Origin: Nitrosopumilus sp.
GTDB lineage: Archaea; Thermoproteota; Nitrososphaeria; Nitrososphaerales; Nitrosopumilaceae
Direction: 5' to 3'
Assembly: GCA_965207445.1 (NCBI GenBank)
Contig: CBDBLX010000002.1
Span: forward strand, 2,424,124-2,488,123
DNA: 64,000 nucleotides
Position numbers: made by a program. The first letter of the stretch is position 1. The number at the start of each line of letters is the position of its first letter. Of the stretch, positions 1 through 64,000 are shown piece by piece.

Positions 1-3000
1 CCCATTATCATAGACTTGTCACAGTGCATAGTATCAGAGTTTGCAAGTATATCATGCATGTATGGTAATCCAACAGATTCTGCAAACGCATAATCCACTG
101 CAACACATAACAATCCACCGGCACTCTGGCGCATTCGAGCCACATGTTCCGGACTCGTCATTGCAGCATAAGATACCATATCTACTTCATCTTCTCTACC
201 CTCAGAGTCATGCAATAAAATAAACTCACCTCGTCTCAAGGATTCAAGTGCATCTTCAAGTGCCATGTAAAAAATACACGACATATTCGGATTATAAAGT
301 TTACCAGTATGGTGGTAATTACCCACATATGGGTACAAATTCAATTTAGAATGTATTTGCCAAGAATGTCAACTTCAATGTTAAGTTTGTCACCGACTTT
401 TTTGGTAGAGAGATTTGTCATCTGGATGGTATGAGGAATAAGTGAGATGGATACACGACGTCCCCTTACAGATACAACAGTAAGACTTATGCCATCAAGT
501 GTGATAGAGCCTTTCTCAAGTACGTATTTTGTGAGACGTTTAGGAATCTCAATGTGCAATCTCACTTCTTTTGATCGTTTCTGAATTTTGGTTATAGTGG
601 CCTTGCCATCCACATGGCCTAACACAAAATGTCCTTCTAGTCTGTCACCTATCTTTAAACTACGCTCTACATTCAACACACTTCCAACACCCAAGCTTCC
701 AAAACTAGTCTTTTTGATAGTCTCCTCAACAAGCTCAAACGTACACTCAGAGCCATTGATGTCTACTGCAGTAAGACAAACTCCATTTAACGCAACGCTT
801 TGCCCTTCTTTGAGTCCTTTGGGCTCTTGTGACAAGTCAACTATAATTTTAGCTGCGCTGCGATTTCTAGTAGTAAAAATCACACTCTTGATTACACCCG
901 TATGTTCTATTATTCCTGTAAACATTAATGTCACATAAATTACACATAGTACGATAATTAAATGCTAAGTACAAAACAAATATTGTGTGAAAAACATTCT
1001 GCCAAGTTTTAATAATACAAACAACATATGATTGGGCAAAATATTCGTGTTTTTACAAACAATCAGATTTAACATGCACAGAGAACAATATGAATATTTT
1101 TCAAAATAATTACTTGTATAAGAATACACGCCATTGCATCAAAATTATGAAATCTGTTTGAGTACATTTTGTCCATAACTGTTAAACTAAAATGCCATAG
1201 CACAACTGCCAACTTTTTACAACAAATAGATCAAGAGTTGGAGTCATGTTGTGCTAAAATATCAGAATATTCGTTGTCACAGAATTGATGAAATACAGTA
1301 CAGTTGTTGTGTTGAGCATCATCTATGATCTGTGCCATGTCACGATCACGTACACCTTGTGCTGCTAAAAACGCATGGTCATCTTTTTTTAGCATTGTGA
1401 ATAAACCAGAGCGAATAAATGCAATGCGTTTTTTGGTATCAAGAGTCAAAGAGTCAGCATCATATATACGATCAAAAATTAATAATGCATCCTCATATCG
1501 CGTCAGTTCCATCAGTGAAAGTCCCTTGTCAAATAGAACAGTTTCATTATTAGGAGATATGTCAAGTGCTTTATCATAATAGGGTAGAGATTCGGCGTGA
1601 CGTTGGAGCTTTGCAAGGGCAAATCCCATTACGGTAAGAGCTGTGACATCACGAGGGTTTGACTTTAAAATATGCCCACATGTTTCCATGGTATTTTCAT
1701 TTTGATCCAGAGCCTCCAATGCATAGAGTTTAACTTTTAGTGCAAACTCATCAAATCCACGTAAATGCAACACCTTGTCACAGTACGGGATAGCCTCATC
1801 GTATCGTTCAAGAGAGATTAATGCAAGTGAAACATTTTGTAGAGCAGTCATATTGTCAGGATCCTTTGCAAGAATATCAGTACAATATTTGTACATTTTG
1901 TCATATTTATGTGACTTGTACAATGAATCAAGTATGATTTTCAGATCAAATGAATTTATCATAATTACATGTAAAATAAATTATAAATTAAGTTATTGCT
2001 AAAAGCAAAAAAAAATGCTATTACCAAGAGTCTTAATCAGTCACGGACAATAATATCCAATACGGCTTTTGCTTGTTTATAGTGTACCTCATCGACCATC
2101 TTTCCATTTATTGTAATGGCACCTCTGCCTTGTTGAGTTGATTGGGGATAAATCGATACAACTTTTTTTGCCCATGATATCTCCGATGCGCTTGGATGAA
2201 ACATATTATGCACCATATCGATCTGATCTGGATGTATAACGCTCTTGCCTGCATATCCAAGTGACTTGCCAAGTAAGCAATCTTGCTCCAAACCTTTTTG
2301 ATCGTTTAAATCCTGCCATATACCATCAATAGAATTAACCCGTGCGGCGCGTGCATCAAGTGCCACACGTGCGCGTGCATATCTAGCAGCATCAGAACAT
2401 GCAGAGTATTCAATTCCCATGTCTGCTAACAGATCAAACACACCAAATATGATACAATCGATTCTAGAGTGTTTGCCACCTGATGATGCAATTTCATACG
2501 TATTCACTACACCTTGTGCAGACTCAATAGATGGTATTATACCAACTGACTCGAGTCGTCGTTGTTGTTCTAAATCTTCGATAATTTTTATAATCTTGTA
2601 AAGTTGAGTCGTATTATCGAGTTTTGGAATTACAACTCCATCAATACCCTTGCGTATTATTGCGTTTAAGTCATCAGGTACCAATCCAGAGTCAGGGGAG
2701 TTTGTACGAGCATATACAGCAGTGTTTGGACTATATTGATCTCGCTCTTTGAGTGCTTGCTGTATCATCTGCCTTGCAGTATCTTTTTGATCAAAAGGTA
2801 CAGAGTCTTCTAAATCAAAACAGATTATATCGGCTTTGAGTTTTTGTGACTTTGTTATAAAACGTTGATTATTTCCTGGAACAAAAAATAAACTGCGAAA
2901 TAGCAGTGGTGGCAGATCTGATCAACCCTGTGACTTTAGGAGAATCTTTCCAAAGAGTCCCTTGCCAGTAAGCATCTTTGTATGTGCTTCTGCTGCTTGT

Positions 3001-63000: not shown

Positions 63001-64000
63001 CATCATGTCAGAGTCATCTACCATCATGTCAGAGTCATCTACCATCATGTCAGAGTCATCTACCATCATGTCAGAGTCATCTACCATCATGTCAGAGTCA
63101 TCTACCATCATGTCAGAGTCATCTACCATCATGTCAGAGTCATCTACCATCATGTCAGAGTCATCTACCATCATGTCAGAGTCATCTACCATCATGTCAG
63201 AGTCGTTATCAGAGTGTGGATCTGCAGATGCAGACACTATGATCTGACCAGTCATCCACGGATGAACAAGACAGTAGTGGTCATACGTACCTTCTTCATC
63301 TATTGTGAATACGTATGAACTACCAGCAAGTACAAGACTACTATCAAACACACCAGTAGCACCATCTGTAGGTGAACCAGATGTTAATGTGTGTGCCACA
63401 TTATCTGTGTTGTCAAAAGTAATCTCGGTTCCAGGACTCACAGTCAGGATTGGCATATTGTAGCATAGTTCTTCTGTATCTTGACATCCAGGTACACCTG
63501 AACCTTCGACAGGTGTTAGTATTGGATGGACATCAGCAAATGCCGAGGGTGCAATAGCAACCATTCCCGTTACAAGCACAGACAGTAAAAAAAAGGAACT
63601 GACTGCTTTAGTCATCATAGTTTAGGATTATAGAATGGGTTTTAAAAATCTAGCCATTTTTATACTAAACTGTTACTTGTACTAACTGTGAAAAATTATT
63701 TACCACACACAACAATGCTCGCAAATTATATCTCATCAAACATAATTTTTAGATATATGGGCCATCATCTTTTTCCAAGTTTTTTACGTAACAAAATTAC
63801 AGTAAAAACAGGCAGACCAATATAGATTAACAAATTGAGTATAATTATACCAACACCATAGATGATCATCTCATAGTCTGTATCTATGTCGATATGTTGC
63901 AATAGGGAAAGTGACGTGAGTAATGGTGTCAACATGATCCTTGTCATCTCTCTGAGAATTGGGTGTTCCCTTTGAATATCAGATATTGCAGGTGAGAATG

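Follow-up and report, generated by a model that had tools for sequence, protein, structure and literature searches.

Insertion sequences (ISs) make up at least 12% of the 2.49-Mb contig (C2) of this Nitrosopumilus genome, and they probably form a large resident population in which long-running transposition is balanced by decay and deletion, rather than the product of one recent burst. The population comprises at least 16 element types from nine Pfam transposase families together with about 172 loci of an 81-bp miniature element (MITE-81). New copies would continually arise and be polymorphic between the co-assembled haplotypes, older copies would become frameshifted, truncated, and nested, and insertions would persist nearly only outside genes, with the coding sequence under normal purifying selection. 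The window, i.e., the whole 64-kb stretch of DNA that was analyzed, is ordinary IS-poor core-gene DNA, and it is to the rest of the chromosome that the genome-wide finding applies.

The initial annotation had put repeated DNA at 499 kb (20.1%) and IS DNA at 14.4% of C2, with a coding share of 79.8%. Self-megablast (matches of at least 200 bp) returned 486,348 bp of repeated DNA, corresponding to 19.5% of C2, and 298,212 bp (12.0%) were masked when 16 reference elements with a transposase served as the library, a minimum because neither MITEs nor unclassified repeats were counted. The coding share is compatible with the 81.7% obtained for C2 by a crude greedy ORF cover. A high IS share is found together with a lowered coding density, and the very high and diverse IS load that had been claimed is supported by 280 loci with transposase-gene DNA and by families confirmed through Pfam. 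The IS share accounts for only about a third of the approximately 0.9-Mb excess over relatives of 1.6 Mb. Part of the repeated DNA of the genome consists not of ISs but of CRISPR arrays and of giant genes for repetitive surface proteins.

The list of IS families was borne out by Pfam searches on the family representatives, all of which scored above the gathering score: DDE_Tnp_1 (two types), DDE_Tnp_1_5, DDE_3/IS630 (two), DDE_Tnp_IS66 (five subtypes), DDE_Tnp_IS240/IS6 (two), rve, DDE_Tnp_4, IS1595, and IS110. The NCBIfam equivalog models IS5, ISH3, IS6, and IS481 matched as well, every one below its cut-off, and the IS copies are therefore divergent members; the dominant types are IS5-like, ISH3-like, IS630, and single-ORF IS66. 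Terminal inverted repeats are visible at the printed ends of most of the 16 elements, and exact target duplications of at least 4 bp flank 50 of 83 full-length elements (13 families), with none at the other 33. The modal duplication is 9 bp for IS4/5a and IS66d, 8 bp for IS6a, and 12 bp for the rve type. With a G+C content of 39.4% for ISs versus 39.6% for the remainder, composition gave no signal of foreign, recently gained IS DNA, and this similarity counts for the residency of the IS population. Multi-copy ORF families without a Pfam match were considered as new transposases and rejected: all 22 such ORFs were without an NCBIfam match, one family (F5) is a spurious ORF across the CRISPR array, another (F19), with 7 copies of 970 aa, looks like a repetitive surface protein that is secreted, and most of the others are overlapping frames within known ISs.

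The element IS66d occurs in four full copies of 2.13–2.15 kb, each with a 9-bp duplication. It shares with the IS66 family the DDE_Tnp_IS66 domain, terminal inverted repeats starting with GTAA, and a duplication of fixed length, and it differs in the length of this duplication, which is usually 8 bp in IS66, and in lacking the TnpB_IS66 accessory gene. Throughout the genome, none of the 4 candidates scored for TnpB_IS66 (PF05717) passed, and the IS66 elements are single-ORF rather than of the canonical three-ORF form; presumably, they are comparable to the ISBst12-like group (named according to ISfinder usage). The 16-bp terminal inverted repeat of MITE-81 (GTAACCGTTCAACCCC) is common to all four IS66d copies. 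Being 81 bp long, non-coding, multi-copy, and bounded by terminal repeats that match those of the autonomous IS66d, MITE-81 has the properties of a MITE. In C2, 344 two-strand nhmmer matches correspond to its approximately 172 loci, and only 8 of 287 matches lie inside an open frame of at least 150 aa, compared to 72% of the genome. A 9-bp duplication (with up to 2 mismatches) flanks 26 of the 87 two-ended copies, while the other 61 resemble a shifted control.

The single burst that had been proposed for these elements is not supported by the state of their copies. At 113 of the 280 transposase loci, 90% or more of the gene is present, and these loci are outnumbered by 167 partial ones; within the former group, 61 retain an intact frame and 52 are broken, 45 of them through frameshifting gaps, which amount to 235 in total. 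Since only 31 of these 235 gaps are homopolymer changes of up to 2 nt, sequencing error was rejected as the source of the broken genes. The nearest-neighbor identity of 106 full copies is at least 99.5% in 14, at least 98.6% in 35, and below 95% in 22, with copy identities ranging over 85–100% and all-pairs medians of 90–98%. IS proliferation in recently host-restricted bacteria was reportedly described by Moran and Plague in 2004 and by Plague et al. in 2008, and their model is said to expect near-identical copies as well as relaxed selection. Near-identity is not the general state of the copies found here. A subset of families looks recently active, with 5 copies of IS4/5a that have a twin of at least 99.5% identity and one pair of 100% identical copies each in IS6b and DDE_Tnp_4, and there may therefore have been small recent bursts inside the long-running transposition.

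That transposition is ongoing in the population, as had been proposed, is corroborated by duplication-flanked insertions that face empty sites in the other haplotype. The IS copy at C1:62058-63729 is flanked by CCAATTATA and its site in C2 is empty, in exact agreement with the claim. Across C2:1-128842, all 7 repeat intervals with at least 81% of a transposase gene have no counterpart in C1, the contig of the other haplotype, although some of these "private" copies may owe their status to sequence lost from the other haplotype, and several of the differences are large segments (20.8 kb, 8 kb) instead of clean single insertions. Fully shared with C1 in this region are 4 intervals, pieces of 350–1030 bp; two are parts of IS66b, and the other two contain no transposase DNA. 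Private IS copies occur in C1, too. Furthermore, the three loci that had been listed as interrupted were all recovered: an IS66-type copy (74679-76828) interrupts the CRISPR array at C2:68639-79614; an Eco57I-type (type IIG) gene is split by a copy at 1010206-1012334 with a 9-bp duplication; and an IS630 copy at 1851052 follows 41 bp after the end of a gene of the NAD_binding_10 type.

These observations also bear on whether foreign repeats or collapsed or duplicated contigs could have inflated the IS share in the course of assembly or binning. While the assembly is of the metagenome type, its second contig partly duplicates the first, and the estimated contamination is 5.47%, the ISs lie within a single 2.49-Mb contig and have exact target duplications, including those of all four IS66d copies, as well as empty sites in the other haplotype; moreover, their G+C content is that of the genome, and the figures for C2 leave out C1. 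Such an artefact is, therefore, highly improbable.

Relaxed selection, which had been put forward as a mark of a symbiont, was not seen in either of two comparisons. Between C1 and C2, pN/pS is 0.131 over 45 ORFs (pS 0.024), a value that describes one 44-kb sample of ORFs in two haplotypes. Among 50 dated insertions with an exact duplication, only 5 restore an ORF of at least 150 aa across the empty site, compared to 64% of the positions outside ISs (binomial P 1.7e-15), and 7 are nested within IS DNA; target preference, and not selection, may be part of the cause for this scarcity in genes. IS expansions are usually read as a mark of weakened selection after host restriction, and a single recent burst of that kind, the classic early-symbiont pattern, would agree with the high load, a coding density of about 80%, defense genes and a CRISPR array cut by ISs, insertions polymorphic between haplotypes, and the 14 copies with a close twin. 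However, it is unlikely in view of the broad range of copy identities, the broken full-length genes with several frameshifts each on average, the numerous fragments, the low pN/pS, the rarity of insertions in genes, and the identical G+C content of ISs and genome. Relaxed selection after recent host restriction fits less well than long-running transposition with decay and purging. In this genome, normal purifying selection and strong exclusion from genes accompany a very high archaeal IS load, and the load would thus result from high transposition input and tolerance in non-coding DNA, to which the pattern points as the driver, and not from a collapse of selection. A host-associated lifestyle rich in mobile elements may underlie this input.

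The IS richness that had been ascribed to positions 1..64000 is absent from the window itself (Table 1). No transposase family domain was found by Pfam in any of its 67 ORFs, matches to the IS library total 418 bp, and the share of this 64-kb bin in repeats of at least 500 bp is 0.000, the lowest among the 39 bins of C2. Its genes include ribB/ribE-like genes, those for S19e, S27e, an RNase P subunit, and a thermosome, cobalamin genes, guaA, guaB, and znuABC, as well as genes for a class II RNR, HMG-CoA reductase, and CopCD; an Rfam search of the window returned a single tRNA and no other match. The greedy ORF cover is 86.9%, compared to the 81.7% of C2. The window was also considered as a selected IS-free cold spot, an idea that was rejected: the 85.8 kb from C2:2402314 to the contig end, which include the window and form the longest run free of IS pieces of at least 500 bp, fall short of the 92 kb expected for the longest gap when the 131 IS clusters are placed at random (95th percentile, 130 kb).

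Table 1. Repeats, IS remnants, and other features located in the window.
Position	Strand	Feature	Evidence
1..64000		Core housekeeping stretch without transposase gene	Pfam on 67 ORFs, repeat share, IS library match
19039..19542	+	Non-IS 18-bp coding tandem repeat (KASSSH, ~20 units) in a zinc-ribbon protein	Repeat search, translation
21667..22060		Host segment: 5' end of rhomboid gene and upstream region	Repeat search, megablast
22064..22683	+	Gutted IS630-type element, ~620 bp	blastn against IS library, terminal repeat search, sequence reading
38304..38384		MITE-81 copy, 81 bp	blastn (161 matches), terminal repeat pairing, nhmmer
38385..38750		Unclassified low-copy repeat, 366-bp piece	blastn
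38756..39036	+	IS66d terminal fragment	blastn against IS library
40609..40689		Second MITE-81 copy	Terminal repeat pairing; nhmmer E 1.5e-18
48733..48821		Third MITE-81 copy, diverged	blastn, sequence; nhmmer E 1.1e-16
56159..56561	+	Non-IS 21-bp coding tandem repeat (EEHGDEH, 13 units)	Repeat search, Pfam ZnuA, translation
62154..64000		End of C2, overlapping C1:1-1883 at 97–98% identity	megablast, alignment
62950..63243	-	Non-IS 21-bp coding tandem repeat (DDSDMMV, 10 units) in a cupredoxin-domain protein	Repeat search, translation

What remains of ISs in the window is limited to three MITEs of 81 bp, two fragments of IS ends, and the gutted shell of one IS630. The shell has kept its left end (22067-22203, reference positions 4-156) and its right end (22606-22681, whose terminal inverted repeat lies at 22665-22681), and in place of the transposase gene it contains a 399-bp copy of adjoining host DNA (22209-22607), which is 98.7% identical to the rhomboid-gene segment. 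The IS66d fragment, the sole transposase-gene fragment detected in the window, corresponds to reference positions 1850-2142 of 2142 at 90% identity, the remainder of the element being missing. The unclassified repeat next to it has three further partial copies in C2 (86–90% identity), and in the diverged MITE-81 copy, the C-run of the left terminal repeat is expanded to 14 C. In total, 3.9 kb of window DNA is repeated elsewhere, mainly coding tandem repeats and the overlap with C1. The KASSSH repeat falls within the repeated-DNA count without being IS DNA; the EEHGDEH repeat sits in the metal-binding loop of ZnuA, and the DDSDMMV repeat has one extra unit in C1, seen as a 21-bp gap in the C1/C2 alignment. 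Past the overlap, C1 holds 15.5 kb that is missing from C2 and then rejoins C2:1 (blastn of C1:1884-17369).

The IS load itself is not unique, as a similar or heavier one occurs in related public genomes and in print. In first-look searches, 14 of 150 other genomes of the genus exceed the present one in DDE_Tnp_1 candidates, and for IS66, IS630, and DDE_Tnp_1, one congener (G132), which has at least 30 identical intact IS66 transposase genes, yielded 135, 115, and 203 candidates compared to 57, 33, and 63 here; such candidate counts are not copy numbers, and the IS share was masked for the present genome alone. At E 1e-30, PF13358 and PF03050 gave no scored match in the present genome because its copies are too divergent from these profiles. 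At least 24 contiguous congeners (1–9 contigs, 1.9–2.8 Mb) have at least 15 DDE_Tnp_1 candidates each, whereas the complete genomes of 1.4–1.8 Mb have no DDE_Tnp_1 match, as might be expected for a trait of the clade that arose by one ancestral expansion common to large-genome Nitrosopumilus and is merely retained here. This inheritance is quite unlikely, however: in a DNA search that scored two candidates per genome, the IS66d and ISH3-like transposase genes had no match above 66% identity at E 1e-40 or better in 150 other species (best match 65–66%), other genomes have their own sets of identical copies (IS66 of 472 aa in G132; copies of 397 aa in G140), and the collection contains no close relative, guaB being at most 75% identical to that of the closest genome. 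Under a resident IS population, each lineage would have expanded its own IS types independently.

We tentatively extend this reading to the genus, where large-genome lineages may each have built their IS load independently. The present genome could then represent a mature birth-and-death equilibrium, in which intact copies turn over faster than 1.4% divergence, insertions in genes are purged by selection, and the IS66-derived MITE is the most numerous mobile element, 70% of its two-ended copies being without target duplications, possibly via recombination between copies. If true, the genus would be a natural replicated experiment on archaeal IS dynamics, in which "many ISs" can be separated from "relaxed selection". 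Nearly all IS-rich congeners have 1–9 contigs, and short-read MAGs have underestimated the IS loads of Nitrosopumilus.

The claim that the load is far above those of Thaumarchaeota holds against the papers of 2019 and 2021 (maxima of 83 ISs and 56 transposase domains) and fails against a survey of 2026, in which, among 17,237 genomes of archaea, a Nitrosopumilus MAG with 14.95% IS is the maximum (BMC Genomics 2026, PMC13343696, Table S3) and four further Nitrosopumilaceae are listed at 6.4–8.8%. This MAG belongs to the same genus, has an IS share of the same order as found here (12–14%), and may or may not be the present genome. As far as the table and the associated text of the survey go, it is given as a number alone, with IS richness tied to extremophiles and with nothing on the anatomy or age structure of elements, on polymorphism between haplotypes, on MITEs, or on a reading in terms of symbiosis. 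New here are the IS66-derived MITE and IS types that were not found in other species of the genus. An enrichment of transposases, restriction-modification, and toxin-antitoxin genes has been described for sponge-associated Thaumarchaeota (Moeller et al. 2019, PMC6790972; Haber et al. 2021, PMC7848895), which the present genome resembles in its many transposases and restriction-modification genes (14 Eco57I-domain matches). The short-read MAGs in the sponge data reported there have 0–56 transposase Pfam domains in each genome, as against 280 loci here, and Haber et al. (PMC7848895) did not settle why transposases are numerous in certain symbionts only.

With recently host-restricted bacteria, the genome shares a high IS load, inactivation of genes by ISs, and reduced coding density, and it is unlike them in having old and young copies together, a pN/pS of 0.13, and insertions that avoid genes. 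Sulfolobus carries MITEs, and in its many IS families, its active transposition, and its non-autonomous MITE derivatives, the chromosome described here is similar to those of IS-rich Sulfolobaceae such as Saccharolobus solfataricus, which is, however, a free-living thermoacidophile with different IS families, and for which the survey states an expansion of ISH3 (PMC13343696).

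The proposal of the initial annotation, that an insertion-sequence (IS) burst has struck a recently host-restricted symbiont, spans the whole 2.49-Mb contig C2; it was assessed separately for the genome and for the window, which forms the final 64 kb of that contig (C2:2424124-2488123). Within the window, no such burst was seen: none of its 67 ORFs (greedy ORF call, covering 86.9% of the window) matched a transposase family in Pfam, the repeat share of its bin was 0.000, the lowest among 39 C2 bins, and IS-related DNA is present only as debris. The composition is even (G+C 0.34-0.44), and Pfam assigned core functions to the ORFs, which include genes for riboflavin synthesis, ribosomal proteins S19e and S27e, an RNase P subunit, EMG1, the thermosome, adenine deaminase, five cobalamin genes, GMP synthase, IMP dehydrogenase, dihydropteroate synthase, class II ribonucleotide reductase, prephenate dehydratase, diphthamide synthase, TiaS, HMG-CoA reductase, ZnuABC, a CopC/CopD fusion, and a cupredoxin protein. 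The near-absence of IS DNA from the window carries no statistical significance: the longest IS-free stretch (85.8 kb), inside which the window lies, is shorter than the longest gap of 92 kb expected if the 131 IS clusters are placed randomly.

Repeats, IS debris and a tRNA-like call in the window
Feature	Window position	Remarks
Coding tandem repeat KASSSH	19039-19542	zinc-ribbon protein; ~20 units, near-perfect
IS630-type shell	~22064-22683	gutted, both ends kept
MITE-81 copy	38304-38384	
Low-copy repeat	38385-38750	366-bp piece
IS66-type element	38756-39036	last 293 bp
MITE-81 copy	40609-40689	
MITE-81 copy	48733-48821	diverged; terminal-repeat C-run grown to 14 C
tRNA-like call (ARAGORN)	52667-52758	odd, 92 nt, minus strand, just after TiaS; four-base anticodon; not called by Rfam
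Coding tandem repeat EEHGDEH	56159-56561	ZnuA metal loop; 13 units, near-perfect
Coding tandem repeat DDSDMMV	62950-63243	cupredoxin protein; 10 units, near-perfect

In pieces of at least 200 bp, 3,904 bp of the window recur elsewhere in the genome (megablast), mostly the three coding tandem repeats and a 1.85-kb overlap with the second contig, C1; the DDSDMMV repeat is one 21-bp unit longer in C1 than in C2. In the IS630-type shell, the place of the original interior is taken by a 399-bp copy of the adjoining host DNA on its left (21667-22060; 98.7% identity), including the 5' end of a rhomboid gene. The copy resembles filler DNA taken up from the flank in repair after excision or deletion.

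The miniature element MITE-81 is 81 bp long and has 16-bp terminal repeats (GTAACCGTTCAACCCC) that also bound four full copies of IS66d, one of the IS66 subtypes, all four with perfect 9-bp duplications. For MITE-81, nhmmer gave 344 two-strand matches in C2, corresponding to ~172 loci. Among 87 two-ended copies, a 9-bp duplication with at most 2 mismatches is present in 26 and absent from 61, one possible cause of the absence being recombination between dispersed copies. The MITE ends might also be the source of some poly-C/G tracts. No TnpB_IS66 gene was found in the whole genome.

At the scale of C2, the IS observation is real and well measured. Repeats of at least 200 bp in a self-megablast amount to 486,348 bp or 19.5% of C2 (16.8% for those of at least 500 bp), and masking with a library of 16 reference elements gives a lower bound for IS DNA of at least 298,212 bp (12.0%), matching to within a few per cent the 20.1% and 14.4% reported initially. 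Giant genes for repetitive surface proteins (e.g., C2:1477025-1500670) and 8.8 kb of CRISPR array are part of the remaining 203 kb of repeats. After clustering of 469 ORFs of at least 100 aa in DNA with at least 3 copies, 40 representatives run against Pfam revealed DDE_Tnp_1 (two abundant types) and a DDE_Tnp_1_5 type, DDE_3 (two), DDE_Tnp_IS66 (five subtypes), DDE_Tnp_IS240 (two), rve, DDE_Tnp_4, DDE_Tnp_IS1595, and DEDD_Tnp_IS110 with Transposase_20. The nearest NCBIfam models, all below cut-off, were IS5 and ISH3 for the two abundant DDE_Tnp_1 types and IS481 for the rve type. Transposase-gene DNA was located by blastn at 280 loci, 113 holding at least 90% of the gene and 167 partial; in 61 of the 113, the frame stays open over at least 90% of its length.

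The three loci described as cut by IS copies were all recovered. A full IS66d copy (74679-76828) with a 9-bp duplication at its borders cuts the CRISPR array (C2:68639-79614); another IS66d copy (C2:1010206-1012334, duplication ATTTGTCGC) cuts a would-be 1,227-aa frame of type IIG, with the Eco57I profile split into positions 1-55 before and 31-171 after it; and the ybjT-like NAD_binding_10 gene ends at profile position 122 of 184, 41 bp ahead of an IS630b copy at C2:1851052. The Eco57I (type IIG/IIS methylase) domain has 14 matches, 13 on C2 (e.g., 1410710, 2393021, 1137704) and one on C1; several of these matches lie in frames 900-1,640 aa long, and the restriction-modification gene set is unusually large for a 2.5-Mb archaeon. 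A seven-copy family of apparently secreted 970-aa proteins (C2:1602866-1605778 and six paralogues) had no match in Pfam or NCBIfam; its members combine beta-type modules that recur along the chain, linkers rich in proline, and a helical motif duplicated at the C terminus.

The alignment of C1 to C2:1-128842 (~98-99% identity) is broken at 13 places, and at ten of these one side has at least 900 bp. All 7 repeat intervals of this region that hold at least 81% of a transposase gene have no C1 counterpart, and the 4 fully common to both contigs are pieces of 350-1030 bp; two of these come from incomplete IS66b copies, and the other two contain no transposase DNA. Private C1 copies lie at 53.9-56.1, 62.06-63.73, and 101.7-103.1 kb, and the polymorphic insertion reported earlier, an IS4/5a copy in C1 flanked by CCAATTATA with an empty site in C2, proved exact. 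Where C2 has 20.8 kb (C2:61087-81864) that include the whole CRISPR array (~8.8 kb of repeats), C1 has just 70 bp (79597-79668), and these are a MITE-81 copy. Since some haplotype differences are such large segments, loss as well as gain is involved. C1 is also more than an alternative haplotype: C1:1-1883 matches the C2 end (window 62154-64000), the next 15.5 kb (C1:1884-17369), in which most ORFs are unique, have no counterpart in C2, and C1:17370-26393 and C2:1-9024 agree at 100% identity. Therefore, C2 is not a closed circle, and the right edge of the window is an assembly break.

The ages of the copies speak against a single burst. Identity of full-length transposase genes to their family reference ranges from 85 to 100% (blastn), with all-pairs medians of 90-98% within families; nearest-neighbour identity reaches 99.5% in only 14 of 106 copies and 98.6% in 35, and is below 95% in 22. 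To this breadth are added the 167 partial loci and 52 full-length but broken copies, 45 of which carry frameshifting gaps. Because only 31 of the 235 gaps are homopolymer changes of at most 2 nt, this decay is biological. The G+C of IS DNA (39.4%) equals that of the remaining genome (39.6%).

Purifying selection still acts on genes, with pN/pS at 0.131 (pS 0.024, pN 0.0032) across 45 ORFs outside IS DNA compared between C1 and C2. Exact duplications flank 50 of 83 full-length elements (13 families), 7 of the 50 being nested in IS DNA; element removal restored an ORF of at least 150 aa in only 5 of the 50, while the same criterion places 64% of non-IS positions within a frame of this kind (P = 1.7e-15). 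Likewise, 8 of 287 MITE hits fall within frames of at least 150 aa, compared with 72% of the genome. Target preference could contribute to this gene avoidance. With copies that are not uniformly young and selection still acting, the reading of a burst after recent host restriction is weakened.

Among 151 Nitrosopumilus genomes, 52 matched DDE_Tnp_1; the 99 unmatched include complete 1.4-1.8-Mb genomes, and the IS-rich ones are almost all 1.9-2.8 Mb in 1-9 contigs. In first-look candidate counts, which are not copy numbers, the genome under study has 63 DDE_Tnp_1 candidates and 14 genomes have more (up to 279 and 272); G132 has 135 IS66 candidates, at least 30 of them identical 472-aa genes, and 115 IS630 candidates, and G127 has 62 and 79, respectively. 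The genome under study is without a close relative among these (guaB identity at most 75%), and in 150 other species DNA matches to its IS66d and ISH3-like genes did not exceed 66% identity, with only two candidates scored per genome. Among the papers searched by text, none pairs 'miniature inverted-repeat' with 'Nitrosopumil', and 'IS66' and 'MITE' are absent from the text of Krupovic et al. 2019, which gives 244 thaumarchaeal ISs in 20 genomes, with a maximum of 83. Sponge-associated Thaumarchaeota are listed with 0-56 transposase domains versus 0-3 in free-living ones (Moeller et al. 2019, PMC6790972; Haber et al. 2021, PMC7848895). A 2026 survey (PMC13343696) reports 14.95%, in a Nitrosopumilus MAG, as the top IS content among 17,237 archaeal genomes, and its Table S3 places four further Nitrosopumilaceae at 6.4-8.8%. 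The IS load described here is a further, well-resolved case of a phenomenon already present in public genomes and in print.
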